64,000 nucleotides of DNA from Armatimonadota bacterium (lineage in GTDB: Bacteria > Armatimonadota > Zipacnadia > Zipacnadales > VGFC01): positions 34,518 through 98,517 of the forward strand of contig VGFC01000001.1 in NCBI GenBank assembly GCA_016869045.1, read 5' to 3'. Below are positions 8,589 through 48,946 of this stretch, in pieces (within the stretch, counting starts at the first letter, position 1; every line of letters starts with the position of its first letter). Under the pieces are notes generated by a model. It saw only the letters and a list, made by a program, of their open reading frames with translations, did not search any database and had not been told where the DNA came from. A program made the translations under genes and the position numbers.

Positions 8589-8640
8589 GTAGGGGCGCGA
8601 TTCATCGCGCCCATGTGTAGGGGCGCCATTCATGGCGCCC
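8589..8640 (+). repeat. REP-like doublet (GTAGGGGCGCGATTCATCGCGCCC + GTAGGGGCGCCATTCATGGCGCCC)
   Basis: Two 24-nt GTAG-initiated palindromic units in direct orientation, 8589-8612 and 8617-8640. The C/G swap between units is compensatory and keeps the hairpin. Confidence 0.9.
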
Positions 8641-8674
8641 GCGCCGTGCCTTCCGCACCCATGGTCCGTCACCC

Positions 8675-10366
8675 ATGACCTCACGAACTGCCCTCGCGCT
8701 CTGCGCCGCCCTTGCTATGGCCGCCGTTGCCGGGTCGGCGGCGCAAGGCCAGGAGGCTCCCGCCGAAGCGGCGGCCCGGCTCACGCGTTCGGCGGCGGAG
8801 CTGGTCCAGCAGAAGAAGTATGACGAGGCGCTGAACCTCCTCCGTCAGGCCCAGGAGACCGCGCCGACATACGCTCCCGCGCAGGAATGGCTCGCCCACG
8901 TCTACGAGGTGACCGGGGACAAGGCCCAGGCGCTCAACCACGTGGCTGCTTTGCTGGCGCTCCAGCCGCGCAGCGAGTACGGCCTCGCGGCAGCCAAGCG
9001 TCTGTTCCTCAGGCCGCCCTTTCCCCGCCGCCTGAACCGGGGGCTGCTGGCGGTCAGCCCCGTCGCCTTCACCGTGGACCAGGGATGCGCGCTGACGGAC
9101 GAGCGGGTCCCCGCCTTCCCCGCCCGGCTGGCGCTCTGCTACACCACGTCCGCGAAGTACCCCGAGGACGGCGCCGACGGCGGCCCGATCGTCGAACGCC
9201 GCCTCCCCGGACCGGGCAACCAGCCTGCCCAGTTCAACCGCGTCGTCTACGGCTACCGCGAGGACCCTGAGGCCGGCGACTTCCGCCTCGCCGTGATCGC
9301 GTACTACCCGTCCGAGCTGCTCTCGGGCACCGAGATCGATCTCGGCCCCACGGCCCAGCGCCTCGTGCACCTCATGCTCCGCTTCCGCACGTATGCCGAG
9401 GGCTACCTGGGTCTGCCGCCGCAGGGCGACGCCGAGGGGCTGAACCGCCTGTGGCTCTGCACCAACGGCCCCAACGGCGCCGAACGCAGCGAGAGCGACA
9501 TCCTCTTCTACCAGGCCCTCAGCCCGGATCGCTCGGCGCTGGAGTGGCTCAGGCAGCTGGCTCACGAGTCCGGCCACCTGCTCTTGCCGACCGTCGGCGG
9601 GTTCGCCGCGACGGAGATGTGGGGCAGCGGCGAGGTCGGCGAGCGCCTGTTCGTGCACTGGCTGGCTCAGGAGGCCGGCGGTTGGAGCGGCGCCGGCTGG
9701 CCCTCGGACGCCGCGGTCGCCCGCCTGGACGGCCTCTGGCCCGGCTGCGGCGCCGCCGCCGAGGACTACCTCGCAGCCTCCGGGCGCGCGCCGCTGGGGG
9801 TCTGGGCCGGCGACGGGCCGGAGTCCGAACTCATCATGGGCACCGACGAGCGGGCCATGCGCTACTACGTGGGCTTCGCTCTCTACATCCTCGCCGCGCA
9901 CGGGTCGAGCGGCCTGCGCGACGTGGTGAAGACCTGCACCGGGACCACGGTCGCCGACTTCGTCTACGCCTATCGCCAGACCGTGACCGCGCGCGCCAAG
10001 GCCGGCCCGCTCACGCTGGGCAGCGGGTGCCTCAACCCGGCGGAGAGCAAGCTGACGCGGCCGCCCTCGGCCGCGAACCTCGCGCCCCAGTCCATCACCC
10101 TCGCGGCGGGAGACACAGTCGCCTACCCAGTGTTCCTGCCTAAGGGGACTTGGCGGCTGACCTTGGGCATCCCCGACGCCGGGGCGAAGATCCTCGTCTC
10201 CTTCGATGGCAGCGCCGATGCGCAGGTCGAGATCACACCCAAGTGCGAGCCGGTCCTCATCGGGCCGCTGACCGAGGGCTGGCACAAGCTCAGACTGCGT
10301 ACGCCCGCCGACCAGCCGCCGGTCCGCCTCGAGGGGCTCACCTTCAGCGAGGGCCCCGCCGCATAG
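8675..10366 (+). CDS. secreted protein with N-terminal TPR-like region and an HExxH (HESGH) motif, putative metallopeptidase-like
   Basis: Signal peptide MTSRTALALCAALAMAAVAGSAAQG. The LAHESGHLLLP zinc-binding-like motif is present. Otherwise unrecognised. Confidence 0.4.
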   Translation: MTSRTALALCAALAMAAVAGSAAQGQEAPAEAAARLTRSAAELVQQKKYDEALNLLRQAQETAPTYAPAQEWLAHVYEVTGDKAQALNHVAALLALQPRSEYGLAAAKRLFLRPPFPRRLNRGLLAVSPVAFTVDQGCALTDERVPAFPARLALCYTTSAKYPEDGADGGPIVERRLPGPGNQPAQFNRVVYGYREDPEAGDFRLAVIAYYPSELLSGTEIDLGPTAQRLVHLMLRFRTYAEGYLGLPPQGDAEGLNRLWLCTNGPNGAERSESDILFYQALSPDRSALEWLRQLAHESGHLLLPTVGGFAATEMWGSGEVGERLFVHWLAQEAGGWSGAGWPSDAAVARLDGLWPGCGAAAEDYLAASGRAPLGVWAGDGPESELIMGTDERAMRYYVGFALYILAAHGSSGLRDVVKTCTGTTVADFVYAYRQTVTARAKAGPLTLGSGCLNPAESKLTRPPSAANLAPQSITLAAGDTVAYPVFLPKGTWRLTLGIPDAGAKILVSFDGSADAQVEITPKCEPVLIGPLTEGWHKLRLRTPADQPPVRLEGLTFSEGPAA

Positions 10367-10421
10367 AGGCACCCGTTCGTCGGACACGTTGTCGGACCAA
10401 CCCCAGAAGGAGCAGTCAGGA

Positions 10422-10979
10422 ATGAGAACGTCAGCGTGGATTGGGATCGTCGTACTCGTCGTGCTATGCCTCGCCCTGTGCGGCTGCCCGAAGCCCGTGA
10501 AGCAGGCTGCAGAGGTCGCTCGTACCGCGCAGGACGCCCAGGACGGCAACTACACCGTCAAGGGCGAGAAGGGCGAGGAAATCAAGGTCGAGACGAAGGG
10601 CGAGGGTGAGAGCGGCTCTGTAACGGTCACCGGCCCCGATGGGGCGACCAAGAGCGAGTTCGGTGAGCAGGCCGTCAAGCAGGAAGACGTCGGCATCGAC
10701 TTCTACCCCGGCGCCACCGTACAGGGCGGAGGCAAGGTCACCGGCGGGGAGAAGGGCGGCTCCTGGGCGGCCGTCGGCCTCGAGACCAAGGACCCCTTCG
10801 ACAAGGTCGCCTCTTGGTACAAGGACAAGTACGGCAAGGGCAACACGGTCATCGAGAGCCCTGGCAGCCTGATGATCACCCTCAACGCAGGCGAGAACAA
10901 GGGCAAGATCATCATGGTGGCCGAAGACAAGGACAAGGGCATCACCACGATCGGGATCCACAGCGGCGAGGGCGGGTAG
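10422..10979 (+). CDS. lipoprotein, Gly/Lys/Glu-rich, hypothetical
   Basis: ATG with GAAGGAG upstream. Lipobox LALCGC after a hydrophobic h-region. A rho-independent-like hairpin sits at 11013-11042. Confidence 0.55.
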   Translation: MRTSAWIGIVVLVVLCLALCGCPKPVKQAAEVARTAQDAQDGNYTVKGEKGEEIKVETKGEGESGSVTVTGPDGATKSEFGEQAVKQEDVGIDFYPGATVQGGGKVTGGEKGGSWAAVGLETKDPFDKVASWYKDKYGKGNTVIESPGSLMITLNAGENKGKIIMVAEDKDKGITTIGIHSGEGG

Positions 10980-11068
10980 CCCCTCCCCGCGCCCGAATCG
11001 AAAGCGAGGCAAGCCCCCGTGCCGAAGGCGGCGAACGGGGGCCTGTTCCTGCTTCCGGCGGCAGCAAG

Positions 11069-12019
11069 GTGAACGATAGCCCAGACCCCCGCAACAAGCT
11101 CAACGACCTCTCCAACCGCGAGTGGCTCAGGGCGACCAAGAGCTTCTGGGTGACTGCCATCGGCCGTGAGCCGACCGAGTTGGATGCCCGGGCCTGGGAG
11201 GAGTTCGTCGCATGGCTCAGAGAGCGCCGCGGGGATGAGGCGACCGAGGAAGTTCTCGAACAGATCATCCCCAGCTTCGTCTTCAGCCGCACGCCGCCTC
11301 GCAGCAAGCTGAAGAGCCAACACCCCGCCACGTTTTCCGAGCTGGATGTCGCGCGCCTGATGTGCCTCTTCACGAAGCGCGGCGGCCGCGTGCTCGACCC
11401 TTTCGTCGGCACCGGATCGACCCTGATTGCGTGCGCCCGGGAAGGGCGCGTCGGCGTCGGCATCGAGCTGTCGCCCGAGTGGACCGAGGTCGCCCGCACC
11501 CGGCTGCAGGAGGAGGGCGGTTTCCTTGCGGGGGACCAGCGACTTATCGAGGCCGACGCGCGAGACGCCCTCCCCAAGCTGCCGCCCGAGTCCTTCGACC
11601 TCCTCCTGACCAGCCCGCCCTACTGGAGCATGTTGCGCAAGAAGCCCGGCCTCAAGGCGAAGACCGAGCGCGTCACCAAGGGCCTCGCGACCCATTACAG
11701 CGAATCAGCGGGTGATCTGGGGAACATCGAGGGGTACGATGACTTCCTGGAGACCCTCGGATCGATCTTCGCCCTCGCCCTGCCCGCCCTCAAGCCCGGC
11801 GCCCATGCCTGCGTGATTGTCTCCGACTTCCGCCACGGAAGCCGCTTCGTCCTCCACCACGCGGACGTCGCCCGGGTCCTCGAGGACTCAGGCTACCCCC
11901 TCAAGGGCGTTACCGTCCTCGCCCAGGACAACAAGAACCTCTACCCCTTCGGCGTCCCCCACCGCTTCATCTCCAACATTCACCACCAGTATGTCCTCGT
12001 GCACCAGAAGACCGGCTAG
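11069..12019 (+). CDS. DNA N4/N6-amino methyltransferase (PF01555-like motifs in permuted order: FxGxG before SPPY)
   Basis: GTG at 11069 with AAGG upstream. LDPFVGTGSTLIACAREGRVGVGIEL is an AdoMet motif I plus the R-x-IGIE block. RLIEADARDALPKLPPESFDLLLTSPPYW is the catalytic (S/D)PPY motif IV. Confidence 0.7.
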   Translation: MNDSPDPRNKLNDLSNREWLRATKSFWVTAIGREPTELDARAWEEFVAWLRERRGDEATEEVLEQIIPSFVFSRTPPRSKLKSQHPATFSELDVARLMCLFTKRGGRVLDPFVGTGSTLIACAREGRVGVGIELSPEWTEVARTRLQEEGGFLAGDQRLIEADARDALPKLPPESFDLLLTSPPYWSMLRKKPGLKAKTERVTKGLATHYSESAGDLGNIEGYDDFLETLGSIFALALPALKPGAHACVIVSDFRHGSRFVLHHADVARVLEDSGYPLKGVTVLAQDNKNLYPFGVPHRFISNIHHQYVLVHQKTG

Positions 12020-12024
12020 CCGTG

Positions 12025-12077
12025 TGGGAGGGGCTTCAGCCCCGACTGTTCGCCCCTTGGGGCTGAAGCCCCTCCCA
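12025..12077. terminator. bidirectional hairpin between the convergent MTase and GIY-YIG genes
   Basis: tgggaggggcttcagcccc...ggggctgaagcccctccca forms a perfect 19-bp inverted repeat in the 80-nt gap between the two stop codons. Confidence 0.6.
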
Positions 12078-12098
12078 CAGTGCCAGCAGCGGCGGCCG

Positions 12099-12896
12099 TC
12101 ACGTCCGCTGGGTGTACTTGGGGAGGCGGCCGTGGCGGCGGACGTAGAGCCTGTGGAGTTCCTCTTCGGCGGCGGCAGGGCGGTCGGTGAGGGCCCAGCG
12201 GACGAGCAGCTTGGTCGTGTCCTCGCCCGCAAGGATGGCCTTGTGGACCGGGTGGTTGCCATGACCCATCACCAGTTGATGCTTGACCCGCGCACGGAGG
12301 TCGGCTGCCCGACCAATCGTCAGCCGCTCGATGTGGGGTTCCCGGATAACCTCGTAGACCCCCGGCCTGCCGATCGGCACGCGAGGGCCGGTGCGCTGCC
12401 TTTCATCCTGGAGGAGGTCGTTCCAGGGCACCCACCGGGACCATGCGAGCACGATGGGCGGTATCTCCAGAGCCTGGACCTGGGCGGCGGGGGTACCGTC
12501 ATCCGGGTCCGTCTCCACGCGCAAAGGTCGCGGCAGCCCTCTCGCCCTGGGGAACCTGGGCCGCACGCCGCCCTGCTGCGCCTGGGCCTGGGCGCTCCGG
12601 GTCCGGGCCGGCCGGTTGGCCTCCGGGCTGGCTGAGACGGGGAAGCCCATGCGCAGGAAGACGCGTCGCGCCCGGTCAGAGTCGACCTCCTTGCGCCCTA
12701 CGTCGAACGCGACAGCGAAGGCCTGCCTGACCGGGTACCGGACGCCGTTGACCTCGACGGCGTGGACGTTGATCCGGTCGGGCGTCACCTTCCGCAAGGC
12801 GTTCTCCACCTGCAGCTTCGTACGGCAGAGACGTTGTCCGTTGAGCGTGAACTCGTACGGGTGCTCCATGGGTCCCCCCGGGGAAGACGACGGCAA
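12099..12896 (-). CDS. GIY-YIG nuclease-domain protein (candidate restriction endonuclease partner of the adjacent MTase)
   Basis: C-terminal PGVYEVIREPHIERLTIGRAADLRARVKHQL matches the GIY...YIG...R...H pattern with the conserved Arg. N-terminal ~100 aa unrecognised. Start may instead be the second Met at 12869. Confidence 0.55.
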   Translation of the reverse strand: MPSSSPGGPMEHPYEFTLNGQRLCRTKLQVENALRKVTPDRINVHAVEVNGVRYPVRQAFAVAFDVGRKEVDSDRARRVFLRMGFPVSASPEANRPARTRSAQAQAQQGGVRPRFPRARGLPRPLRVETDPDDGTPAAQVQALEIPPIVLAWSRWVPWNDLLQDERQRTGPRVPIGRPGVYEVIREPHIERLTIGRAADLRARVKHQLVMGHGNHPVHKAILAGEDTTKLLVRWALTDRPAAAEEELHRLYVRRHGRLPKYTQRT

Positions 12897-21105: not shown

Positions 21106-22296
21106 TCACCGGGACTGTGCGATGACGACTCGGTCGATGCCACTGAGGTCCTTCAGGATGCGAGTGTCGAAGGTCGGCCAGGCGGTTGCGCACAGGTCCC
21201 GGACAGTTGCCGCCTGTCCGAGGCCGACCTCCAACGCGACCAGACGCACGTTCGGGAGGTACCGCGCGCATTCCGGGATCAGCCGCTCGTAGACGCCCGT
21301 CCCGGCCTCCCCCTCGCCCAGCCACGCAGGCTTCGGCTCGTGCGCGGCGACCTCGGGAGGCAACGCAGCCACGTCCCGCAGAGCCACGTAGGGCGGGTTC
21401 GACACCACGCACGTGATCTCCTCGGTGAGGCCTGCGGCGAGGACGGGGTCGAGGTCCGGGCCTTCAGCAAACCGGACGCGGTCGGGGAGGCCGAGCGCCT
21501 CGGCGTTCTCGCGCGCAAGGGCCAAGGCGTCTGACGAGATGTCCGTGAGGATGACCCGAGCCTCGGGTAGGAGTGCGGCAAGGGAAAGGCCGATGGCGCC
21601 GGTGCCAGCGCCGAGGTCGAGGATGGCCGTTGTGGGGGCGGACCCATGATTGTGTTGACAAAGGCGGTGTCGGGATTGGCATCCCGACCTACGAGCCACG
21701 TAGACGGTGTAGGAAGAGTGCTTCTCCTCGACGGAGTGGTTTCCCAACAAAATCCCATGTGTTCGCCCATGTCCGGCCGTTGTAGGGGCGGACACGTGAT
21801 TGTGTTGAGAAAGGCAGTGTCGGGACTGGAATCCCGACCTACGAGACACGTGCGGCCCGCAGGAGAGGCGTCCTTCCTCGACAGAGCCCTTCTTCAACAC
21901 AATCCCGTGCGTCCGCCCCGGCCCGGCCGAGGAGGGGCGGACACGTGGGTCCGCCCCTACAACGGCATTGACCAAGACCTCGGTCTCGGGGCGGGGGACG
22001 AGGGCGCGTTCGTCGCAGCGAAAGCGGAGCCCCATGAACTCGGTGTAGCCGGTCACGTAGGCGAGGGGGCGGCGAGAGGCGCGTTCGGCAGCGAGGGCCG
22101 AGAAACGGGCACGAACGGCTGTGTCCAGAGGGCTGCGCAGGAGCAGGTCGAGGCGCGTCAGGGGGACGTCGAGTGCGTGAGCGAGGAGGATGCGGGCGTC
22201 CGTGAGGGGGCTGTCCACTCCCGCGGCCTGGAGTCGGGCGACGGCCTCGTTCAGGGCATCGCGCACCGACGGGGCGTGGGTCATTGCCGTCACCAC
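21106..22296 (-). CDS. prmC: release-factor glutamine N5-methyltransferase PrmC/HemK carrying a ~110-codon in-frame insertion of palindromic MITE-like elements
   Basis: ILDLGAGTGAIGLSLA (motif I) and VVSNPPYV (NPPY) are intact, and the gene is immediately downstream of prfA. The region 21633-21960 between the N-domain and MTase domain is two tandem ~140-bp TIR-bounded elements, read through without stops. Confidence 0.8.
   Translation of the reverse strand: MVTAMTHAPSVRDALNEAVARLQAAGVDSPLTDARILLAHALDVPLTRLDLLLRSPLDTAVRARFSALAAERASRRPLAYVTGYTEFMGLRFRCDERALVPRPETEVLVNAVVGADPRVRPSSAGPGRTHGIVLKKGSVEEGRLSCGPHVSRRSGFQSRHCLSQHNHVSAPTTAGHGRTHGILLGNHSVEEKHSSYTVYVARRSGCQSRHRLCQHNHGSAPTTAILDLGAGTGAIGLSLAALLPEARVILTDISSDALALARENAEALGLPDRVRFAEGPDLDPVLAAGLTEEITCVVSNPPYVALRDVAALPPEVAAHEPKPAWLGEGEAGTGVYERLIPECARYLPNVRLVALEVGLGQAATVRDLCATAWPTFDTRILKDLSGIDRVVIAQSR
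21633..21960. mobile_element. two tandem MITE-like elements (~138 bp each, TIR GGGGCGGAC(C/A)C(A/G)TG(A)TTGTGTTGA...) plus a 30-bp solo palindrome, inserted in-frame in prmC
   Basis: Element 1 is ~21633-21770, element 2 ~21783-21919, each with terminal inverted repeats and an internal hairpin (gtcgggaYtggMatcccgac). A solo palindrome ggaggggcggacacgtgggtccgcccctac lies at 21931-21960. Confidence 0.75.
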
Positions 22297-22324: not shown

Positions 22325-22378
22325 GGGCGCCATGAATGGCGCCCCTACACGGTCGGGCGCGATGAATCGCGCCCCTAC
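22325..22378 (-). repeat. REP-like doublet (reverse orientation)
   Basis: gggcgccatgaatggcgcccctac at 22325-22348 and gggcgcgatgaatcgcgcccctac at 22355-22378, between prmC and prfA. Confidence 0.9.
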
Positions 22379-22414: not shown

Positions 22415-23509
22415 TCAGCGGGCGGTCGAGTCGCCGACGGCGGCCTCGGCGAGCCGGCGCTCGTAGTCGGCCTTGGCCAGCGCGTCCAGCAGTTCGTCGA
22501 TGTTCCCCTGCAGGAGCGAGGGCAGGTTGTGCAGCGTCAGGCCGATCCGATGGTCCGTCAACCGATCCTGCGGCCAGTTGTAGGTTCGAAGCTTGTCGGA
22601 GCGGTCGCCGGACTTGACGTGCTGGCGGCGGGCAGCGGCCTCCTCCTCGCGGCGGGTCGCGAGCTGCAGGTCCAGGAGCTTGGAGCGAAGGATGCGGAAG
22701 GCCTGCTCGCGGTTCTGGTGCTGAGAGCGCTCGTTCTGGCAGGAGACGACGAGGCCGCTGGGCTTGTGGCGGACGCGGACGGCAGTGTCGTTCTTCTGGA
22801 CGTGCTGGCCGCCGGCGCCGGAGGCGCCGAAGGTCTGCACTTCGCAGTCGGCGGGATCGATCCGGACATCGACCTCCTCGGCCTCGGGGAGGACGGCGAC
22901 CGTCGCGGCCGAGGTGTGGATGCGCCCCTGGGACTCCGTGACCGGCACGCGCTGGACGCGGTGCACGCCGCTCTCGCTCTTCAGCCGGCCGTAGGCGCCC
23001 TTGCCATTGACCGCCAGGACGACCTCCTTGTAGCCGCCCATGCCGCTGGGGCTGCTGTCGAGCACCTCCGGCTTCCACCTCATCCGCTCGGCATAGGCGC
23101 TGTACATGCCGAGCAGGTCGGCCGCGAAAAGCGCCGCTTCCTCGCCGCCCGTGCCCGCGCGAATCTCGACGATGCAGTGCTTCTCATCGGCCTCGTCCTT
23201 GGGCACGAGGATGGCGAGCACGGCGGCCTCGGCGGTCTGGGCGCGCTGTTGGGCGCTCTCAAGCTCCTCCTGGTAGAACTCGCGCTCCTCGTCGTCGGCG
23301 GCGTCCGCCAGGCCCTTCTCAGCCTCCTCGGCGTCGGCGAGAGCCGCCCGGTAGGCGCGGACGTGCTCGACCGCCGTCGCCAACTCCGAGTGGCGGATGC
23401 TCGTGTCACGGAAGAGGTGCTGGTCGCCAATGACGGCCGGATCGGCCAGCCGGCGCTCCAGCTCGTGGTACTCCTCCTCAATGGCATCCAGGGCGGCGAC
23501 GTCGATCAA
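22415..23509 (-). CDS. prfA: peptide chain release factor 1
   Basis: GGQ motif in TFGASGAGGQHVQKNDTAVR. Conserved RF1 domains. Classic prfA-prmC gene order. Confidence 0.9.
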   Translation of the reverse strand: MIDVAALDAIEEEYHELERRLADPAVIGDQHLFRDTSIRHSELATAVEHVRAYRAALADAEEAEKGLADAADDEEREFYQEELESAQQRAQTAEAAVLAILVPKDEADEKHCIVEIRAGTGGEEAALFAADLLGMYSAYAERMRWKPEVLDSSPSGMGGYKEVVLAVNGKGAYGRLKSESGVHRVQRVPVTESQGRIHTSAATVAVLPEAEEVDVRIDPADCEVQTFGASGAGGQHVQKNDTAVRVRHKPSGLVVSCQNERSQHQNREQAFRILRSKLLDLQLATRREEEAAARRQHVKSGDRSDKLRTYNWPQDRLTDHRIGLTLHNLPSLLQGNIDELLDALAKADYERRLAEAAVGDSTAR

Positions 23510-23623
23510 CGGAGCGTCTCCTGTCTCGGGTCTCTGGTCTCACGTCTCGCGTCTGCAGTTCGTGGTCCGTGGTCTGCAGTCTGCGGTCTGCAGTCTGAGA
23601 GCGTGTATGAAAAGCACGGCCTG

Positions 23624-23757
23624 GGGCGTGATGAATCACGCCCCTACACTCGGGCACGATGAATCGTGCCCCTACACAACGGCGATTTACGGTCGTTTGT
23701 GACGTAGGGGCGCGATTCATCGCGCCCAGTCATGTAGGGGCGCCATTCATGGCGCCC
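23624..23757. repeat. REP-like quartet: two reverse-orientation units followed by two forward units (REPIN-like inverted arrangement)
   Basis: Units at 23624-23647(-), 23652-23675(-), 23704-23727(+), 23734-23757(+). The first two are sequence variants (gggcgtgatgaatcacgcccctac, gggcacgatgaatcgtgcccctac) with compensatory changes. Confidence 0.85.
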
Positions 23758-23794
23758 GGCCACCCTTCTCATACGCGCTCTGAGGTCCGCCGTC

Positions 23795-26732: not shown

Positions 26733-26897
26733 CGGGCACCTCTGGCATGGGACGGCTTGGGATAACCACGAAATACACGAAACACACGAAATGCACCAAG
26801 GGAAACGGCACGGCTCAGAGGAGGTTCGGCGGCAGGGATTGGGTGACCTTGGAGCGAATGCGTGGGCTCCACGAGTTCGGAGTTCCTGAGAGAGGCG

Positions 26898-27581
26898 ATG
26901 GCGCAGCAACGTATCGCAGCACTCAACGACCGCGACCTCGTCCTGTGCGACTTCGACGGCACCGTCAGCGCGGAGGACACGGGCCTGCTCGTAGCCCGGG
27001 AGCTTCGGCTGGAGCGGTTCTTCGAGATCGAGGAGCGTTGGCGGCGGGGGGAGATCTCGTCGCGGGAGTGCCTCCGCGACCAGTGGCGGACCGTCGATCC
27101 GTCGCGGGCGGACTTCCGCGAGTTGATCGCGAACCTGGAAGTGAACCCGGGCTTCGAGGAACTCGTGGCGCTGACGGGGGTTCGGGGCGCGAGGCTGGTG
27201 ATCCTGAGCGATGGGCTGGACTACTACATCCGGATGACGTTGGAGCGGCTGGGGCTGGAACGTCTCGAGTACCGCGCGAACCATGCCGTGCTGCACGAGC
27301 ACCATGTCGAGCTGCAGTTCCCCTGCCCTGCGGACGCGTGCGACTTCTGCGGCAACTGCAAGACGCTGTGGCTGTTCGAGCTGAGGCCGGGGTTCGAGCG
27401 GCTGATCTACCTGGGAGACGGGATCTCGGACGGCTGCGCCTCGAGGTACTGCGATGTCGTGTTCGCGAAGGACCTGTTGGCGGGAATCTGCCGCGAGCGG
27501 GGTCAGGAGTTCGTGCCGTTCGAGACGCTCGAGGACGTCGTGCCGGTACTGCGGGACGGGAGTGTGCTTCGGGCGCGATGA
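26898..27581 (+). CDS. HAD-IB family phosphatase (MtnX-like)
   Basis: LVLCDFDGTVS (DxDGT) and LGDGISD motifs, plus CxxC pair CDFCGNC. The stop codon TGA lies inside a REP unit at 27571-27594. An alternative ATG exists at 26862. Confidence 0.6.
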   Translation: MAQQRIAALNDRDLVLCDFDGTVSAEDTGLLVARELRLERFFEIEERWRRGEISSRECLRDQWRTVDPSRADFRELIANLEVNPGFEELVALTGVRGARLVILSDGLDYYIRMTLERLGLERLEYRANHAVLHEHHVELQFPCPADACDFCGNCKTLWLFELRPGFERLIYLGDGISDGCASRYCDVVFAKDLLAGICRERGQEFVPFETLEDVVPVLRDGSVLRAR

Positions 27582-27624
27582 ATCGCGCCCCTACATGACC
27601 GGGCGCCATGAATGGCGCCCCTAC
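27571..27624 (-). repeat. REP-like doublet overlapping the 3' end of the HAD gene
   Basis: gggcgcgatgaatcgcgcccctac at 27571-27594 and gggcgccatgaatggcgcccctac at 27601-27624. The first unit encodes the last codons and the stop of the HAD CDS. Confidence 0.9.
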
Positions 27625-28710: not shown

Positions 28711-31587
28711 ATGTCTCACCAGAGCATCCCCCGCCCTGAGCATCCCCGACCCGACTGGCAGCGCGGGAGCCGGGAGGGGCGCGATTGGATCAACCTCAAC
28801 GGGGTCTGGGAGTTCGACTTCGACCCGGAGGGCGTCGGCTGGGCTGAGGGCTGGCACGTGCCGCCGGGGAGACAGGTCCCCGGTGGGGTGTTCATGCTGC
28901 CCGGCGGGTTCGACCCAGCGGGCGTCGGCCGGAGCGAGGGGTGGGATGGGGGCCATGTCTACAGCAAGCGGATTGTCGTGCCCTTCGGGTGGGAGAGCCA
29001 CCTGGCGTGGGGCGGCGGAGAGCGGGCGAGCAATGAGGACTACTTCAGCCCGCAGGCCTTCATCGAGCCGGAGAAGGTGAGCCTGGAGAACTACCGCGAG
29101 GCCAGGCGGCATGAGACGGGGTGGTACCATCGGACCTTCGAGGTTCCGGCGCACTGGCAGAACGAGCGCGTCTACCTGTGCTGCGGGGCCATCGACTACT
29201 TCGCGCAGGTGTGGGTGAACGGGGCGCTGGTCGTGGCCGCGCTCAGCGGATACATGCCCTTCGAGGCGGACATCACCGAGCACGTGCAGTTCGGTGAAGA
29301 GAACCACGTGGTCATCCGCGCCCATGACCCGAACGACCACGAGCAGCAGCCGGTCGGGAAGCAGTCCCGCTGGTATGCACGGACCTCGGGCATCTGGCAG
29401 ACCGTGTGGCTGGAGCCCCGGAGCGCGGTGCACCTCGCGAGCGCGCGCTTTGACGCGGATATCGAGACCGGCGAGGTGACCTGTTCGATCCGGCTCAACC
29501 GCCCCCCCGAGGGCGACCTGGGCTTGCGGCTCGCGCTCTCGATGCCGCAGGGCGGCACGGCATACAACACGTGGGGGGCGAAGGCGGTCGCGGGCGCCAT
29601 GAATGGCGCCCCTACACAGTCGGGCGCGATGAATCGCGCCCCTACAGACGGCAGCGGGGCGGAGGCGATGGAGGCCGGCGAGGGCCCGCACACGACGCGC
29701 CTCATCGTCCACGAGCCTCGGCTCTGGTCGCCCGATGATCCGTACCTCTACCAGGTGGACCTGGAGCTGCTGGACGGCTCTGCGACGGTCGATCTGGTGA
29801 GCACCTACTTCGCCTTCCGCGAGGTCGCGATCAAGCCGCTGCCGGGCAAGACCACGCAGTACATCTACCTCAACGGCCGCCCAGTCTACCTCCTCGGCGC
29901 GCTGGACCAGTCGTTCAACCCGTGGGGTGTCTACACGTTCCCGTCGGATGAGGCGATCCGGCGGGACATCGAGCTCGCGCGGGAGGCGGGGTTCAACTTC
30001 CTGCGGATTCACATCAAGGCCGAGGACCCGCGCTTTCTGTACTGGGCGGACCGGCTGGGGATGCTGCTAATGGCAGACCTGCCGAACGTCGGCTACGAGG
30101 CCGCCGACTCAGCGCTGGCGCGGTCGCGCTGGGTGACCAACATGGTCCTGCAGATCAGGAGAGATCGACACCATCCCTCGATCGTCGCCTGGTGCCTGTT
30201 CAACGAGACCTGGGGCCTGGGCGGCAATGCCTACAAGGAGTTACCCGAGCGCCAGGAGTGGGTGCGCTCGAAGGTCGAGATAGCTCGCGATCTCGACCCC
30301 ACGCGGCCCATCGAGGACAACTCGGCCTGCCTGTATGACCACGTGGAGACGGACATCAACTCCTGGCACTTCTACCTCAACGACTACGCAGCGGCGAAGG
30401 CGCACATCGCGGAGGTGGTCGAGAAGACGTACCCGGGCTCGGGCTTCAACTACTGTCCGGGCTTCACGCAGAACCGCGAGCCGCTGCTGAACAGCGAGTA
30501 CGGCGGCATCTCGGCGCGAATGGGCGACCTGGATGTGTCCTGGTGCTTCCACTTCCTGACGAACGAGCTGCGGCTGCATGAGAAGATCTGCGGGTACGTC
30601 TACACCGAGCTGCAGGACATCGAGTGGGAGCGCAACGGGGTCTACAACTACGACCGCACGCCGAAGGAGTTCGGGTACGACATCCGAGAGCTGAACCGGC
30701 CCGACTTTCTCGCACTCGACGCGCCGCCGTGTCAGGTCGTGAGGCCCGGCGAGGAGGTCGTCGTCCCCGCCGTCTCCTCGCACTTCGGCCCCTTCGTCGG
30801 CGACCACGCGACGCTGGGCTGGAAGCTGGAACTGCTGGACCACACGGGCCGAATCGAGGAGTTCACCGGCTCGACGCGGCGGGTCCCGTTCCCGCGCTTC
30901 GCGGTGACGCCTGCGGGCAAGCTCGCCGTGCGGATGCCGGACTGCCCTGGGCTGGCGACGCTGCACGCGTGGCTGCAGACCGCAGACGGCGATCCCATCG
31001 CACGGAACTGGGTGCACTTCCACGTCGCGGACGAGGGCGTACATCCCGAAGGCATCGCACCGGTCTCGCTCGCGAGCTTCACGGGTGAGGGGATGCAGTG
31101 CTTCGAGGTCGAGGGGGTTCGGGAGGCGGTGTGGGTCGAAGGCGCGGGAGTGCTGTCTGCGAAATTGGGGACAGGCACCATTTTCCGAGACAACGCCCCT
31201 CGGAAAATGGTGCCTGTCCCCAGTTTCGCCCTCGTAGCGGAGCTCTCCTCGTGTCGGCCGGGCGGAGGAGGGAAGCAGACGGACGCGGAGACATGGCCGT
31301 CGCGAGTGCGCGTCTCGCTTGCGGGCGTCGAGCTGGGCTTGGTCGATCTGCCTGACCATCCGGCCGACAGCCGGGGCGTGCTGAGTCACCACTACGGGTT
31401 CGCGGGACGATACGGGGAGCTGGTTACGCTGCGCGTTCCGGCCGAGCGGGTCGGCGAAGCGCTCGACGCCCTGCGCGGCGGCGCGGAGCTGCGCTTCGAG
31501 GTGGACACGGACCTTCCGGGCGGGCTGAGCGTCTATGGTAGCAGGTCGGGCCGTTACCCAACAGGCCCGTACCTCCTGTTCCGTTGA
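28711..31587 (+). CDS. glycoside hydrolase family 2-like protein with two in-frame palindromic insertions
   Basis: GH2 sugar-binding-domain-like block WYHRTFEVPAHWQNERVYLCCGAIDYFAQVWVNG and TIM-barrel region. A REP doublet at 29592-29645 encodes AGAMNGAPTQSGAMNRAPT. A 71-bp palindrome at 31159-31229 encodes SAKLGTGTIFRDNAPRKMVPVPSFA. Confidence 0.6.
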   Translation: MSHQSIPRPEHPRPDWQRGSREGRDWINLNGVWEFDFDPEGVGWAEGWHVPPGRQVPGGVFMLPGGFDPAGVGRSEGWDGGHVYSKRIVVPFGWESHLAWGGGERASNEDYFSPQAFIEPEKVSLENYREARRHETGWYHRTFEVPAHWQNERVYLCCGAIDYFAQVWVNGALVVAALSGYMPFEADITEHVQFGEENHVVIRAHDPNDHEQQPVGKQSRWYARTSGIWQTVWLEPRSAVHLASARFDADIETGEVTCSIRLNRPPEGDLGLRLALSMPQGGTAYNTWGAKAVAGAMNGAPTQSGAMNRAPTDGSGAEAMEAGEGPHTTRLIVHEPRLWSPDDPYLYQVDLELLDGSATVDLVSTYFAFREVAIKPLPGKTTQYIYLNGRPVYLLGALDQSFNPWGVYTFPSDEAIRRDIELAREAGFNFLRIHIKAEDPRFLYWADRLGMLLMADLPNVGYEAADSALARSRWVTNMVLQIRRDRHHPSIVAWCLFNETWGLGGNAYKELPERQEWVRSKVEIARDLDPTRPIEDNSACLYDHVETDINSWHFYLNDYAAAKAHIAEVVEKTYPGSGFNYCPGFTQNREPLLNSEYGGISARMGDLDVSWCFHFLTNELRLHEKICGYVYTELQDIEWERNGVYNYDRTPKEFGYDIRELNRPDFLALDAPPCQVVRPGEEVVVPAVSSHFGPFVGDHATLGWKLELLDHTGRIEEFTGSTRRVPFPRFAVTPAGKLAVRMPDCPGLATLHAWLQTADGDPIARNWVHFHVADEGVHPEGIAPVSLASFTGEGMQCFEVEGVREAVWVEGAGVLSAKLGTGTIFRDNAPRKMVPVPSFALVAELSSCRPGGGGKQTDAETWPSRVRVSLAGVELGLVDLPDHPADSRGVLSHHYGFAGRYGELVTLRVPAERVGEALDALRGGAELRFEVDTDLPGGLSVYGSRSGRYPTGPYLLFR
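29592..29645 (-). repeat. REP-like doublet inside the GH2 coding sequence (in-frame)
   Basis: Units at 29592-29615 and 29622-29645. The reading frame is maintained across the insertion. Confidence 0.9.
31159..31229. repeat. 71-bp near-perfect palindrome (31-bp arms) inside the GH2 CDS
   Basis: gcgaaattggggacaggcaccattttccgag / ctcggaaaatggtgcctgtccccagtttcgc with an 11-nt loop. One arm mismatch. Confidence 0.85.
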
Positions 31588-31604: not shown

Positions 31605-33794
31605 ATGCACGTCGTGGCTGTCCTCTCAGTCGCGTTCCCGCTGCTTGGCCACGCTCAGGAGAGCGACGTGCGGGGGCGGCTCGGCCGGCTCACGAAGGCC
31701 GTCGAGCGGATCGAGTCCAGTGCCGCCGACCGCGATTCGGACGTGTACCGCTCGAACATCCCGCTCGCGCGCTTCAAGTTGCGGAAGGCCCTCGCGCAGT
31801 GGCGCGCGCCGTTCGAGGGGGAGGTCGAGGCCCGAGACACCCTCGACGAGGCTGCGGAGGCCCTGGACCGCCACGACGCCGGCAAGGTGGCGTTTGAGGG
31901 CGAGACGGGCCATCTCGAACGCGCCTACTTCGCTCAGAACGACGATACGGCGCAACCGTACTTCGTCTACGTCCCCGAGGACTATCAGCCGAAGCAGCGT
32001 TGGCCGTTGATCGTCTTCCTCCACGGCTACGTGCCTTACACCAGCATCATCGACCCGTGGGTGCTGTACGAGGAGCACGAGCGGATCGCGGCGGACGCGG
32101 GGGCCCTGCTCTTGACGCCGTACGGGCGCCGGAACACGGACTTCCAGGGCGTGGGCGAGGTCGATGTCCTGGCCGCCATCGAGGAGACGAAGCGGTTCTA
32201 CTCGGTCGATCCGGACCGAATCTACCTGTGCGGGCCGTCGATGGGCGGCTACGGGACGTGGACCATCGCGCTGCGCTACCCCGGCATGTTCGCGGCGTGC
32301 GCGCCGATGTGCGGGCAGACGGACATGTTCGTGTGGTGGCCGTGGCCGCACCTCACCGCGCCGAAGTGCAAGCAGTTCCTCGGCGAGTGGGATAACCCCA
32401 TCGACCTCGCGCCCAATGCCGTCGGGCAGCGCTGCTTCCTGCAACACGGGGAGTTCGACCGCCTGATCCCCATCGAGCAGTCGCATATGATGCGCTGGGA
32501 GATGGACCGGCTGGGGACGCCGATCGAGTACTACGAGCACAAGGACGCGGACCACTTCATCTACCAGCACGAGCTGTGCTTCCAGAAGGCCTTCCCGTGG
32601 CTCGTTCAGCACAAGCTCGATCGCTGGCCGAAGCACGTGCGCCTGAAGAGCTACACGTACCGCTACGACACCGCGTTCTGGCTCCGGATTCTCGAGTACC
32701 AGCGGTGGAGCCAACCGGGCCAGATCGAGGCGACCGTCGAGGGCAACCGGATCAGTCTGACGAGCCAGAACGTGGCGCAGGTGCGGCTGTCGCTCTCGAA
32801 GGAGCTGCTGGACGTCGGCCAGCCGGTCACGGTCGTGTGCGGCGGCAAGGAGGTGTTCAGCGGGGTGCCCAAGGGCGAGGCGATTACGGTGAAGCTCGCC
32901 GAGCCGCTCACCCCGGAGAAGCCGGGCGCGATCCGCAAGCGGAAGGGCCTGTGCGGGCCGCTGGAGGATGTGCTCAACGGGCCGTTCGTCGTCGTGCCGG
33001 GCACCGCGGGCTCACAGGACCAGACGCAGGAACTGACGGACCGCGCGACCAAGTGGTGCGCGGAGTGGGACGCCTTCGCGGACGGCATCCCGCCTGTCAT
33101 GCTCGACACTGACGTCGATGAGAAGACCATCGCCGAGCGCAACCTCGTGCTGTTCGGCACGCCGGAGACGAACCAGGTCATCGCGGACATCGCCGACCGG
33201 CTGCCTGTGAAGATCGCGGAGGATGGCTACACTCTCGGCGGTCACACCTACACCGGCCCCGACCTCGGGCTGGCCCTCTGCTACCCGAATCCGAAGAACC
33301 CTGAGCGTTACGTTCTCATCTACGCCGGCGAAGACCCGGGCACCAACCTGGGGATCAACCACAAGCACGACCTGCTGCCCGACTACTTCATCTTCCGCGC
33401 GGGCGAGAAGAACGGCTACGACGACACTTACCCCCACCTGTGTGCCGGCTTCTTCGATCTCAACTGGGAGTTCGACCCGACGCTGATGGACGCCGAAGCC
33501 GCCCCTGCCGACCCCTACTTCGGCTCGGCGACCCTGGTCCGCGATGCCACGCTCACCCAGCCCGTGGCGAAGGTCACCAACGGCTACGCCGACCCGCTCC
33601 GCGTGACCATCGATCGCGGCGAGGAGGCAGTCATCCAGCCGGGCGAGTCCATCGAGCGGAGCCTCGAACCGGGACGGCACCTGTTCACGGGCGTCTGCCC
33701 GGACGGTGTCACACGCACCGAACAGCGGCTGATGGTACCGGAGTTCCGATACGAGTGGAGGGTCCCGGCGCTGTTCCCGGCGGGGTGGCCGTAA
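31605..33794 (+). CDS. secreted alpha/beta-hydrolase (S9 prolyl-oligopeptidase/esterase-like)
   Basis: ATG with GGAGGTG upstream. Signal peptide MHVVAVLSVAFPLLGHAQ. Nucleophile elbow LCGPSMGGYG (GxSxG). Confidence 0.6.
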   Translation: MHVVAVLSVAFPLLGHAQESDVRGRLGRLTKAVERIESSAADRDSDVYRSNIPLARFKLRKALAQWRAPFEGEVEARDTLDEAAEALDRHDAGKVAFEGETGHLERAYFAQNDDTAQPYFVYVPEDYQPKQRWPLIVFLHGYVPYTSIIDPWVLYEEHERIAADAGALLLTPYGRRNTDFQGVGEVDVLAAIEETKRFYSVDPDRIYLCGPSMGGYGTWTIALRYPGMFAACAPMCGQTDMFVWWPWPHLTAPKCKQFLGEWDNPIDLAPNAVGQRCFLQHGEFDRLIPIEQSHMMRWEMDRLGTPIEYYEHKDADHFIYQHELCFQKAFPWLVQHKLDRWPKHVRLKSYTYRYDTAFWLRILEYQRWSQPGQIEATVEGNRISLTSQNVAQVRLSLSKELLDVGQPVTVVCGGKEVFSGVPKGEAITVKLAEPLTPEKPGAIRKRKGLCGPLEDVLNGPFVVVPGTAGSQDQTQELTDRATKWCAEWDAFADGIPPVMLDTDVDEKTIAERNLVLFGTPETNQVIADIADRLPVKIAEDGYTLGGHTYTGPDLGLALCYPNPKNPERYVLIYAGEDPGTNLGINHKHDLLPDYFIFRAGEKNGYDDTYPHLCAGFFDLNWEFDPTLMDAEAAPADPYFGSATLVRDATLTQPVAKVTNGYADPLRVTIDRGEEAVIQPGESIERSLEPGRHLFTGVCPDGVTRTEQRLMVPEFRYEWRVPALFPAGWP

Positions 33795-33855
33795 GGCAAC
33801 GAAAACGGGAAGAGATTCGAGGACCAGAAGAACGACGAAGACGGCAACGGCCCCT
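33793..33855 (+). repeat. solo copy of the aaggcaacgaaa-gggaaga-attcgaag...gaagacgg repeat family (left boundary of lower-GC island)
   Basis: aaggcaacgaaaacgggaagagattcgaggaccagaagaacgacgaagacggcaacgg is ~80% identical to the repeat at 56271-56345 that flanks GxxExxY gene #2. Confidence 0.65.
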
Positions 33856-44394: not shown

Positions 44395-44412
44395 GGGAGC
44401 CCCCTTGCCGTT

Positions 44413-44442
44413 GTAGGGGCGGACCCACGTGTCCGCCCCTAC
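44413..44442. repeat. solo 30-bp palindrome of the MITE/TIR family (gtaggggcggacccacgtgtccgcccctac)
   Basis: Perfect palindrome identical in type to the element termini in prmC. Lies between the ABC ATPase stop and the permease start. Confidence 0.8.
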
Positions 44443-44462
44443 AACGACACGCGCCATACGCA

Positions 44463-45392: not shown

Positions 45393-47856
45393 CGCCCGCC
45401 TCCTCTCCCCGCGTACTCGACATCGGCCCACGCGAGGCCGTAACCGACGGCAGCCGTCCGGCCGGTAGAGGGTTCCTGGACCCCCGGCGCCACTCGGACA
45501 AGGCCGGGCGGCCACAGGATGAACCGGCCTGGCTCGGGAACCTCCAGAGCGAACGTGGGGTCGGCCTTCCAGGTCAGTGCTTTCCACCGGTGGCGTTGCC
45601 AGTCGTACACGCTGATCGCGGTGGGCTCCGCCTCCGGCCCTCCTCCGCGTGGGGGCAGTTGTCCTTGGATGACGAGGCGTTGGTGCTGAGGTCGGGCACC
45701 CTCGATCGCCAGCAACAGCTCACGCGAGCTGCTTGGTTCGTCGTCGGGCGGGCCAGCGCCGGGCGGTCCGGGCATCCCTCCGCCCTGTTCGTTTGAGGCG
45801 TACGCAGCCAGCCACGCGGTGCGCCGGTGGCTCGTCGTGTCGAACGCGCCGCCGACGGGCACGACGAGGTCCGGTCCGCGGATGGTCGTCCTCAGCGGCG
45901 CCAGGTACAGGTGCGCGCCCCTGACCGCGTGGCGGCCCCGGAGTCCCGGCGGCTGCACCAGCGTCTCCCCCCAGCCCAGCAGGAAGGGCCCCGAGGCCCT
46001 GCGCGTCAGGCTCCAGATGGTCTCCTCAGCCTGCTCCCAACGAGTGCTCTCGGGACGTAGCGGCCAGAGGGCCTCGTCCAGCCAGCTGCCCGGACCCGTG
46101 AGATTGTAGATGCGCGAGAGCTGGTACTCCGAGAGGGCCGGGGGCCGAGCTTCAGCGTCAGGGCCTTGGTCTCGCCCGCCGCGACGTCGCCGACCGCGAC
46201 ATGGTTCCACTTGTGGATCAAGTAGCAGTCCCGCAGCGCGAAGGGCAGGCGGTTGGCGACCGTCCCGGTCAATCCATCCGCGCCGATGGACAGCTCTCCC
46301 TCTACCGTGCCCTGCGGCTCGAAGGCCGTCTCCTCGAACGCCCGCATGGACCAGCGCTCGACCCGCACGTTCGACAGCGAGGCCGGCTCGCCGACGGAGA
46401 CGACCGTCGAGGGCCAGCCGCCCTGCCCGAGGCCGCCGTTGTACGGCGTGAACTCGCGGAACGCCGGCTGAGGGCGGCCGAACTGGAGGTCATACGTCCG
46501 CGTGCCAGGCGAGAAGACGCCGAAAGCACCCAGAGAGGCGACGCCCTCGGTGCCGATGGACGTGACGTTCGCGGTCTGGTGCACGAGGATCGGGAACGGC
46601 GAGTGCACGACGACGGCCGCGACCATCAGCCCCAGCACGAAGACCAGGACGATGGCGGGGGTCGTGACGACCACCAACTCCTTCTTGCGCATGACGCCCA
46701 CGACGGCGCAGTTGAGCGGCCCGGCCACGATCACGAAGGCGAGGAGCACGATGAACAACGGCAACCCGGTGTTCGGAAGCCGGCTGTGGGCCGGCACCAT
46801 CGACCACGGGATTGACTGGCGGGACGCCGGTCCGGTGCGGCTCCCGCGGAGCGCCTTCGCCCAGAACCCCTCCCGGAGTCTCGTGCGGCTCGGCCAGTCC
46901 GGAACTTCGCTCCACGCCGGGTCTACGGTGAGGCCCCGGACGGCGCCCATCCCGACGGGGTGCTCGAAGGCCAGGACATGCCCACCCGCGGAGGCCAGCA
47001 CCTCCGACGCCGGCACGCGCACCTCCACGATCTGCGTGAGGGCGCCGGCGATCGGCTTGCGGGAGAACAGCCCGAGCGCGTCGCCCAACCCGTCTGCCGG
47101 GCGGCGTCCCACGACGGTTGCCCCGGCGAAGCGAGCCACCTCCGGCGACGCCGCATTGCGGGCGAGGAAGGGCGCAGTCAACACGAGCAGTCCGCCCGTG
47201 GCCGTCCAGCGCCGGATCGCGCCCCAGGCAGCCGGCGGCAGTTGCCCCACGTCGATGTCCCCCAGGACGATGGCAGCCGCCGCGTCGTAGGCGCGGGCAT
47301 CCGTGGGCGCCTCGCTCGGGGTCAGGAGGTGCATATCCGTCCGGGGCAGGGCGGAGAAGGGACGGTCCTTCTCACTCTCCGCCTGCTTCTGGGAGGGTGT
47401 CACGAACACGAGCGTCAAGCCGTCGCGGCGCGGCCCCCAACCCGGATTGGTCACCTGCTCGAACACCACTTCCTTCCCCCGCAGAACCTGGACGCGCACA
47501 CCGTAGGGGCTCTCGAGGAGTTGCACGACCAGACGCACGGTCGTCGTTCCCTGAGGGAACTCGGCCGGAAACGTGTACACGTCTCCGCGCGACCAGGGAT
47601 CATCGGGAGACGACCAGCCGGGGACCTGCGCCCGCACGGTGCCGCTGAAGGCCGAGCCCTCGTTGGTGACCGTGAGTGTCAGAGGGTTCCACCAGCCGGC
47701 GACAGCGACGCCCCCGAAGCCGAGAGACGTGTTGCCGGAGAGCTGGGCGTGCGCCGACGCGCACAAGAGGTGGAGCGTCACGAGGCCGAGGAGTAGACTG
47801 TACGCGCCGAGACGACTGCGGGGCTTCACGAGGCCGTGTCCGCGTTCCCCCACCAT
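45389..47856 (-). pseudogene. large (about 820 aa) secreted/membrane hypothetical protein upstream of the ABC-2 transporter, interrupted by a frameshift at a C5 run near 46128
   Basis: Track ORFs 46006..48069 and 45389..46210 join at ggcccccggccc: ...GETKALTLKLGP | ALSEYQLSRIYNLTG... Signal peptide MVGERGHGLVKPRSRLGAYSLLLGLVTLHLLCASAHA with GGAGGA RBS. Could be a sequencing error. Confidence 0.5.
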
Positions 47857-48047
47857 ACGGCCCCCTTCCTCCGTTGACGGGTGGGATGCGAGGCCGAGCT
47901 CTGCCACGAAGCACGCCGCACGGAAGCTGCCACGAGGGCTGCGGCTTCCGCTCGTCCCAAGAAACGCGCGACGCACCGGAAGTCCTCGCTCGCGGCACAG
48001 ATTCCTGGGAGGCCTCCTGTGCTTCCATCGCGAATAGCCCGCCCCGC

Positions 48048-48869
48048 ATGAGGTACCGTCTGCTGGCAATCGACCTCGACCATACGCTCGTCCGCGGCCT
48101 GGCCGGAGTGTCGCCCGCGAACCGGGAGGCGCTGGCGCTCGCGCAGGCCGCGGGCTGCCGCGTGGTGTTCTGCACGGGGCGCGGGCGGTACACCACGCTC
48201 CCCGTCGCGGAGGAACTCGGCCTGGCGGACGGGCCGCACATCCTGTTCAACGGGGCGGCGATCTTCTCCACGCTCCGGCAGCCGCCGGGTGAGGTGCTGC
48301 TGCTCGAGCGCGAGGCCGTGGAACACTGTCTGCAGCTCGCGGGCGATTGCGACCTCGGGGTATCGGGCTTCGAGGATCCCCGACAGGGGGACCTGGTGCG
48401 CCTGGCGCGGCCCAACGCGGCCCTGCACCGCTGGGCGCAGGCCAATCGCGACCGCGCGGTGTGGGTGGATGGCCTGGAGGACATCCTGGAACGGCCGATG
48501 GTGGCGTTCCTGTTCTGGGGGGCGGAAGAGGACGTGCGCCAACTGCAGCAGCGGCTCGGCGATCCGCCCGGCGTGGCGCCGCCGCGCGTGGCGACGAGCA
48601 AGGTGCTCGACAGCTGGGTGCTCGAGCTGTCGGCGCCAGGCGGCACCAAGGGCGCCGCCTTGGCTCGCCTGGCCGAGCGCCTTGGGGTGCCGCGCGAGGA
48701 GATCGTGGCCATCGGAGACTCCCACCCCGACATCTGCATGATCGAGTATGCGGGCCTGGGTGTCGCCGTGGGAGATGGCGTCGAGGAGCTGCAGGCGGTG
48801 GCCGACTACATCGGGCCGACGTGCGAGGACGACTGCGTGGCGGATGTGATCCGGCGCTTCATACTCTAG
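48048..48869 (+). CDS. Cof-type HAD-IIB hydrolase
   Basis: MRYRLLAIDLDHTL (DxDxT) and C-terminal IGDSHPD. Confidence 0.7.
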   Translation: MRYRLLAIDLDHTLVRGLAGVSPANREALALAQAAGCRVVFCTGRGRYTTLPVAEELGLADGPHILFNGAAIFSTLRQPPGEVLLLEREAVEHCLQLAGDCDLGVSGFEDPRQGDLVRLARPNAALHRWAQANRDRAVWVDGLEDILERPMVAFLFWGAEEDVRQLQQRLGDPPGVAPPRVATSKVLDSWVLELSAPGGTKGAALARLAERLGVPREEIVAIGDSHPDICMIEYAGLGVAVGDGVEELQAVADYIGPTCEDDCVADVIRRFIL

Positions 48870-48892
48870 GAGCGTGTACGGGAAGCGTGGGC

Positions 48893-48946
48893 GGGCGCCA
48901 TGAATGGCGCCCCTACATGATCGGGCGCGATGAATCGCGCCCCTAC
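48893..48946 (-). repeat. REP-like doublet
   Basis: Units at 48893-48916 and 48923-48946, between the Cof hydrolase and ADH genes. Confidence 0.9.

Follow-up and report, generated by a model that had tools for sequence, protein, structure and literature searches.

A family of short palindromic units that begin with GTAG and resemble repetitive extragenic palindromes (REPs) lies in a 64,000-nt stretch of contig VGFC01000001.1 from an Armatimonadota bacterium (the window). A sequence-only reading of this DNA had claimed 14 units at six loci, arranged as direct doublets at 8589, 22325, 27571, 29592 and 48893 and as an inverted 2+2 quartet at 23624-23757. We searched the window with the pattern GTAGGGGCGCSATTCATSGCGCCC at up to three mismatches and found exactly 14 matches, at the same coordinates and in the same pairing. 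Shuffled sequence is expected to give 0.00 matches, ruling out a chance origin. Twelve of the 14 units are exact, and the other two carry paired double changes. A looser pattern and nhmmer with a hidden Markov model (HMM) of the unit recovered the identical set, and neither revealed degenerate or decayed copies in the window.

The unit is 24 nt long: GTAG, then an 8-bp G+C stem with a TTCA loop. Folded as single-stranded DNA (ssDNA), each unit forms this stem and loop at about -11 kcal/mol (z about -5). The 5' GTAG is present in 14/14 units and unpaired in the minimum-energy fold, and the stem foot reads GGG/CCC in every unit, giving three consecutive G-C pairs. We named the units by their stems: unit A has GCGCGAT, unit B has GCGCCAT, and the two variants have GCACGAT and GCGTGAT. 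Pairing of the stem is perfect in every variant unit. No match in the whole window reached the gathering score of an Rfam family, and a literature search with the literal GTAGGGGCG returned unrelated primer matches only. A CRISPR was ruled out, the units being doublets with 4-6-nt spacers and not arrays.

All 14 units fall into seven same-strand head-to-tail pairs, separated by 4-6 nt, and there are no singletons. Six of the seven doublets are A/B heterodimers, in A-B order in five and in B-A order at 27571. The doublets fold as two separate hairpins. The quartet consists of two doublets placed face to face, which together can form one hairpin of ~140 nt (-57 kcal/mol). The spacers, given below, vary while the 24-mers are identical. 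A conserved 3' tail, GCYTTYYCRTACRCGCTC, follows three of the seven doublets; the 5' flanks are not conserved. Gene calls, based on third-position GC and Pfam, place these features as follows.

8589..8640, plus strand: A-B doublet, spacer ATGT, 15 nt past the stop of the open reading frame (ORF) 7443-8573 (+) and 34 nt ahead of a TPR gene, 8675-10366 (+)
22325..22378, minus strand: A-B doublet, spacer GACCGT, between prfA (22415-23509, -) and prmC (21106-22296, -)
23599..23616, minus strand: 3' tail GCYTTYYCRTACRCGCTC, copy 1, after a doublet
23624..23675, minus strand: variant doublet GCACGAT + GCGTGAT, spacer GAGT, left half of the quartet, upstream of prfA
23704..23757, plus strand: A-B doublet, spacer AGTCAT, right half of the quartet, 37 nt past the stop of a DUF1385 gene (-)
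23763..23780, plus strand: 3' tail GCYTTYYCRTACRCGCTC, copy 2, after a doublet
27571..27624, minus strand: B-A doublet, spacer GGTCAT, at the end of the HAD hydrolase ORF 26862-27581 (+) and upstream of a GFO/IDH/MocA oxidoreductase gene
29592..29645, minus strand: A-B doublet, spacer GACTGT, inside the GH2 glycosidase ORF 28711-31587 (+)
48870..48887, minus strand: 3' tail GCYTTYYCRTACRCGCTC, copy 3, after a doublet
48893..48946, minus strand: A-B doublet, spacer GATCAT, between a Cof-type HAD hydrolase gene (ends 48869, +) and a zinc-dependent alcohol dehydrogenase gene (starts 48966, +)

Of the six loci, five lie outside genes or at the end of one. The extragenic sites all lie between co-directional genes, and where an upstream stop codon exists the doublets are found 15-37 nt past it. 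The doublets have no uniform orientation towards transcription: they are in the sense direction at 8589 and 22325 and in the antisense direction at 27571, 29592 and 48893. Nor is every unit extragenic: the 29592 doublet lies in frame within the GH2 gene, and at 27571 the HAD hydrolase ORF ends on a stop codon (TGA, 27579-27581) that belongs to unit A. In a relative (L170), the end of the HAD hydrolase protein differs and the intergenic gap measures 38 nt. The estimate of about one locus per 10 kb stands for the window taken as a whole (six loci in 64 kb), but the density is local: no unit was found in 48.9-68.1 kb, which covers the rest of the window and 4.1 kb to its right. No T-run follows the hairpins and no terminator-like site was detected at the REP loci in 20-31 kb, excluding intrinsic terminators; a promoter scan at the REP loci gave no match. 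The G+C content of the window is 64-71%, its GC skew is weak, and no origin marker genes occur at 10-20 kb. The window GH2 protein is identical to FJX75_00250 of an Armatimonadetes bacterium metagenome-assembled genome, and the same sequence is also present in JGI metagenomes 3300020074, 3300020084 and 3300020109.

The GH2 ORF reads through its doublet in frame as GAMNGAPTQSGAMNRAPT. The insert spans 84 nt (29587..29670), encodes 28 aa (residues 293-320, VAGAMNGAPTQSGAMNRAPTDGSGAEAM) and is composed, on the plus strand, of 5 nt, unit B, 6 nt, unit A and 25 nt. Its layout on the doublet's own strand is asymmetric: 25 nt precede the pair and 5 nt follow it. In an alignment with nine homologues (61-81% identity), the 28-residue insertion was seen solely in the window protein. 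The site is uninterrupted in the DNA of a close relative (L169, ~85% nucleotide identity, 69% G+C) and in that of the more distant L170. As judged from these sequences, the presence/absence difference would be an insertion in the window lineage, or a loss in the other. An imperfect 12-nt direct repeat bounds the insert. We do not read it as a regular target duplication because 3 of 400 random sites matched or beat it and the other loci showed nothing comparable. The lack of a consistent target duplication across loci is as expected for Y1 transposition.

Comparison between strains was uninformative: the REP loci are identical in L119-L121, which belong to the same population. L120, a co-occurring strain, and the window are identical over ~9 kb, including all REP loci, and then show 165 differences within ~2.5 kb (31.5-34 kb), a cluster that suggests a recombined segment. 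The GH2 gene also contains a second lineage-specific insertion of ~28 aa, PGRQVPGGVFMLPGGFDPAGVGRSEGWD, at about 28858-28963, which is absent from all homologues and from the L169 DNA; within it, GGTGGGGTGTTCATGCTGCCC may be a decayed unit B.

We scanned 185,579 species genomes with GTAGGGGCNNNATTCATNNNGCCC and obtained at least 118 loci; the counts that follow are among the matches listed. These matches span Firmicutes, Bacteroidota, Chloroflexota, Acidobacteriota, Thermotogae, Patescibacteria, Omnitrophota, Gemmatimonadota, Proteobacteria, Armatimonadetes and others, and comprise at least 15 stem types. The free stem positions are fully complementary in 131 of 147 matches, against a chance expectation of 1 in 64. 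Across 27 distinct sequences, double-sided changes occur at all three free pairs (29 cells, versus 7.7 +/- 2.4 in shuffled data). The covariation score is 0.345, compared with 0.086 in shuffles; none of 500 shuffles reached it, and slid controls stayed near zero. Constraint on the hairpin is real, and it is the comparison at superfamily level, not events in the window, that demonstrates it.

Exact 24-mers were found among the 118 loci for unit A (42 loci), unit B (5), the GTGAT unit (12) and the ACGAT unit (4). The recurrence of A, B and both variants as exact 24-mers in many phyla shows that the window variants are pre-existing subtypes, not local compensatory mutants. The proposal that the stem variants are compensatory and that selection maintains the hairpin is borne out in its second half, by the superfamily covariation, but not in its first, since the variants did not arise locally.

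The geometry of the pairs was scored in the same set, and inverted pairs predominated: 70 were inverted with GTAG outside, 23 inverted with GTAG inside and 17 head-to-tail, and 92 units were singletons. The head-to-tail pairs of other genomes have gaps of 0 to 82 nt. No locus with both A and B, and no tight A/B head-to-tail pair, was present among the 118 loci. L026, another Armatimonadetes genome, carries unit B and a GTGAT unit as an inverted pair. All-against-all clustering of the ORFs around the 118 loci yielded only common families (nitroreductase, GAF, ABC) and no recurrent neighbour.

REPs with a 5' GTAG are mobilised by REP-associated tyrosine transposases (RAYT, also RayT or TnpA_REP), and the sequence-only reading had taken the tag as the hallmark of this association while reporting no RAYT gene in the window. 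The first statement is supported and the second was confirmed. A phmmer search of the 64 kb and of a further 4.1 kb past the window found no RayT-like ORF; with the E. coli RayT as query, phmmer gave no match in the window or among the 118 loci. A second query, a family sequence borne out by real matches of up to 77% identity, revealed truncated Y1-transposase (RayT) ORFs adjoining units at two of these loci (L104 and L053). In a protein search, the same query retrieved thousands of proteins from many phyla annotated 'REP element-mobilizing transposase RayT' (PF01797). These RayT genes carry a palindrome within the ORF just past the HUH motif; the one in Meiothermus ruber reads GTAGGGGCACGTTGCAACGTGCCCCTAC. 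Scanning metagenomes for units that adjoin an HUH-coding motif gave 42 RayT genes, whose flanking REPs encode peptides matching the embedded type, and a further protein search delineated a RayT subgroup reading ...HGIIxVGAQFIAP...GAMNRAPTxGEIVR.

The exact window 24-mers occur inside or beside RayT ORFs of other genomes. In L166, an inverted pair made up of exact unit B and exact unit A sits inside the RayT P0282, just past the HUH motif. In L168, exact unit A is present on both flanks of the RayT P0354 and inside it. L171 has an intact RayT (P0241) with an embedded exact GTGAT unit and no dispersed units in 20 kb, and L142 has a frame-shifted RayT with the same exact unit. The RayT proteins matched NF047646 (REP-associated tyrosine transposase) with E values of 1e-15 to 1e-20; the scores fall short of the curated cut-off, probably owing to the interruption of the domain by the embedded repeat. 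Their PF01797 matches are near threshold, and PADLOC returned no match for them.

Several members of this RayT subgroup are encoded within type I restriction-modification operons, in the order hsdS-rayT-hsdR or hsdM-rayT-hsdS-hsdR. This was the case for three of the seven RayT proteins looked up and for at least two metagenome loci, from unrelated lineages, among them Meiothermus ruber and Desulfoferrobacter. The RayT gene of Pelobacter propionicus (L173) has RhuM-family genes as neighbours. We found no description of RayT within type I restriction-modification operons in the literature. The loci with RayT in a type I restriction-modification context, all from other genomes, are:

L122
L166/L167
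L146/L163
L175-L177
L124

Taken together, these results suggest that the units are GTAG-tagged REPs, that is, non-autonomous ssDNA elements, of the type cognate to RayT/TnpA_REP subclass 2.4 (RAYT group 4); we put the probability of this reading at roughly 0.8. The window units appear to possess all the defining sequence features of the GTAG-tagged REP family. That superfamily was defined in eight phyla by Di Nocera, De Gregorio and Rocco (2013; BMC Genomics 14:522); Armatimonadetes are not named in the part of the description available to us. The source describes an unpaired terminal GTAG, a G+C stem of 6-13 bp, a loop of 2-4 nt, subfamilies with complementary stem changes, a location between unidirectional genes (PMC3733652) and occasional in-frame intragenic dimers encoding 20-30 aa, all of which resemble the window units. 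It also describes head-to-tail dimers as absent or rare, whereas the window dimers are head-to-tail in all seven cases, six of them A/B heterodimers, with spacers of 4-6 nt.

The assignment to subclass 2.4 follows Quentin et al. (2018; BMC Genomics 19:475; PMC6006769), who describe for this subclass long REPs whose stem foot has three G-C pairs, 'double-foot' REPs, in-frame REPs within tnpA_REP between the HuH and Tyr motifs, and a scattered distribution among phyla. The subclass corresponds to RAYT group 4 of Bertels et al. (2017), found in 17 bacterial classes with a modest repeat abundance of ~14 occurrences genome-wide. The window units share the long REP with three G-C foot pairs, the presence of the same 24-mers in frame in or flanking RayT, and the patchy phyla. 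They differ in that the window pairs are direct and those in RayT genes inverted, and in number, with 14 units in 64 kb versus ~14 per genome. The embedded REP of RayT genes is an already published feature, and the window element fits described families; its arrangement and local density are somewhat unusual.

Under this classification, the single-stranded 24-nt unit would fold into the computed hairpin with its unpaired 5' GTAG, and a Y1 HUH transposase would recognise hairpin and tag on one strand, cleave and rejoin. Strand-specific binding of single-stranded REPs through the hairpin and GTAG, followed by cleavage and rejoining, was reported in vitro by Corneloup et al. (2021), and strand cleavage and rejoining have been established in vitro for TnpA_REP of E. 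coli, S. maltophilia and Marinomonas. Copies would enter new sites without regular target duplication, with which the flanks are consistent, and would survive where tolerated: between co-directional genes, at gene 3' ends and in frame in a variable stretch of protein, the sites at which the copies are found. RayT genes carrying REPs in or beside the ORF, as seen in other genomes, probably move horizontally, which would explain the identical 24-mers across phyla. For the window units, the transposase would act in trans from elsewhere in the genome, or has been lost.

Several observations weigh against this reading. The RAYT link is concrete solely in other genomes, the window and the 4.1 kb beyond it having no RayT-like ORF, and a single empty-site comparison carries the case for mobility in the window lineage. 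Y1 chemistry would not be expected to leave the 12-nt imperfect repeat at the GH2 insert. At five of the six loci the units form head-to-tail doublets, which do not fit the inverted model on which the RAYT literature is built (REP doublets forming hairpins, REPINs, and bacterial interspersed mosaic elements, BIMEs), and the pairs embedded in RayT genes are themselves inverted. The spacers differ at ~1-3 of 6 positions while the 24-mers are identical, a pattern not expected if whole doublets had simply been copied of late. Finally, the local density is much higher than the ~14 REP occurrences reported for RAYT group 4 would suggest.

The doublet arrangement raises the question of what moves. 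The mobile unit might be the head-to-tail heterodoublet itself, a minimal element like IS200/IS605 or the palindrome-associated transposable elements (PATEs), its two same-strand hairpins serving as left and right ends, moved as one piece by a dimeric Y1 transposase; we regard this as unlikely. Seven of seven occurrences are doublets with no singleton, and six pair A with B. The ends of IS200/IS605 bear same-strand subterminal hairpins with a 5' guide tetranucleotide (PMC8266576), and the GH2 insert is asymmetric, 25 nt against 5 nt. Tight A/B head-to-tail pairs were also missing among the 118 loci from other genomes. On the other side, the spacers differ though the hairpins are identical, the order is B-A at 27571, the 5' flanks are unconserved, the 3' tail follows just three of seven doublets, and there is a single empty site. 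The pairs could equally well come from two REPs joined by RayT strand transfer, or from insertion beside an existing REP. Strand transfer, adjacent insertion and the mobility of a two-hairpin mini-element are all possible origins of the doublets.

Comparison with known paired elements bears on the same question. REPINs (Bertels and Rainey 2011) and E. coli BIMEs resemble the window family in that REP pairs are treated as the replicating unit and heterodimers are common, and the quartet can fold as one long hairpin; there, however, the pairs are inverted, whereas five of the six window loci are direct and form two separate hairpins. Exclusively tight head-to-tail heterodoublets with pristine hairpins and drifting spacers are outside the prediction of the REPIN model. 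The likeness to IS200/IS605 ends and PATEs lies in the same-strand hairpins, the 5' guide tetranucleotide, the Y1 HUH transposase, the ssDNA chemistry and the absence of target duplication. In contrast, no transposase gene lies between the window hairpins, the element is ~54 nt long, and no conserved cleavage-site flanks were identified. It is conceivable, if unlikely, that the A/B heterodoublet is the replicating entity in this lineage, like joined IS200/IS605 ends and distinct from the inverted REPIN, which may account for a burst to a density far above that usual for group 4 RayT systems. Rickettsia palindromic elements (RPE) and other in-frame REP insertions likewise place a palindromic repeat, tolerated, in frame in a protein-coding gene; RPE belong to another sequence family and host, and the window insert is a doublet of GTAG REPs.

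Another reading holds that the units are kept mainly by host use, for example because the RNA hairpins give operon transcripts stability or punctuation, or because a host protein recognises the DNA, with transposition no longer relevant. We consider this doubtful. It would fit the location of five of the six loci between co-directional genes, 15-37 nt past the upstream stop, and the perfect conservation of the hairpins while spacers drift, and REPs have been proposed to act in mRNA stability, termination and supercoiling (PMC3733652). But no T-tract follows the hairpins, hence they are not intrinsic terminators, and their orientation to transcription is mixed; one copy lies in a coding region, a related species lacks the GH2 copy, and the occurrence of identical 24-mers in phyla that are not related speaks for a mobile origin. 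A host role as RNA or DNA structure, though conceivable, is not needed to explain the data. That the units are immobile relics of a past invasion, RayT having been lost and the copies being young enough to be intact, is quite improbable. In its favour, the window has no RayT, loss of RayT with retention of REPs is described for E. coli strains (PMC3733652), and L171, with an intact RayT and no dispersed units, is the opposite state and indicates that RayT and REPs can be uncoupled. Against it, 0 of 14 copies have decayed although the spacers have diverged, which suggests ongoing maintenance or turnover.

Other repeats occur in the same DNA. A second GTAG REP family, GTAGGGGCGGACCCACGTGTCCGCCCC, is present at 44413-44442 and 21934-21960; the copy at 44413, where an ABC ATPase gene meets an ABC-2 permease gene, has a 'double foot' (GTAG...CTAC). 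The PrmC ORF (21106-22296, -) encodes 396 aa, with ~110 extra residues between the PrmC_N and methyltransferase domains (21634-21963). The extra stretch opens with the GTAGGGGCGGACCCACGTGTCCGCCCC REP at 21934-21960, read as VGADPRVRP, and contains a 150-bp tandem duplication (21625-21701 and 21775-21851) with a third REP type in each copy; the whole stretch looks like a composite of REPs inserted in frame into a housekeeping gene. The third GTAG-tagged hairpin family, GTAGGTCGGGATKCCARTCCCGAC, occurs at 21669-21692 and 21819-21842 (-), with a weak copy at 2435-2458.

A 65-nt repeat forms three tandem copies, 95% identical, at 7401-7607, across the start of the ORF 7443-8573; each copy holds the palindrome GGCAAGGC...GCCTTGCC, and the period is not a multiple of three. 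A repeat of ~61 nt, GGGGAAGATTCGAAGACTTGAAGAACGGCGAAGACGG, is found in intergenic regions at 33784-33844, 53747-53807 and 56266-56326, just upstream of plus-strand genes, and may be a shared 5' leader or promoter region. In the related organism L170, a double-foot palindrome, GTAGGGGGCCGATTTCATCCAGCCCCCCTAC, lies at 7550-7580 in a GNAT acetyltransferase ORF, an apparent further intragenic REP.

The window units have consequences for the reading of genomes as well as for their host genes. Through them a glycosidase gene has become 28 codons longer and a hydrolase gene has a new stop codon, and since units occur in coding DNA, annotators should expect peptides such as GAMNRAPT and VGARFIAP to be repeat-derived. 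The independent metagenome contig L121 starts directly after the doublet at 27571-27624 (window 27627), which suggests that the units break short-read metagenome assemblies. The dissemination of REPs is still poorly understood (PMC8266576). With head-to-tail heterodoublets that are all pristine and an empty site in a close relative, this family offers a natural setting in which to ask what it is that moves when REPs spread.

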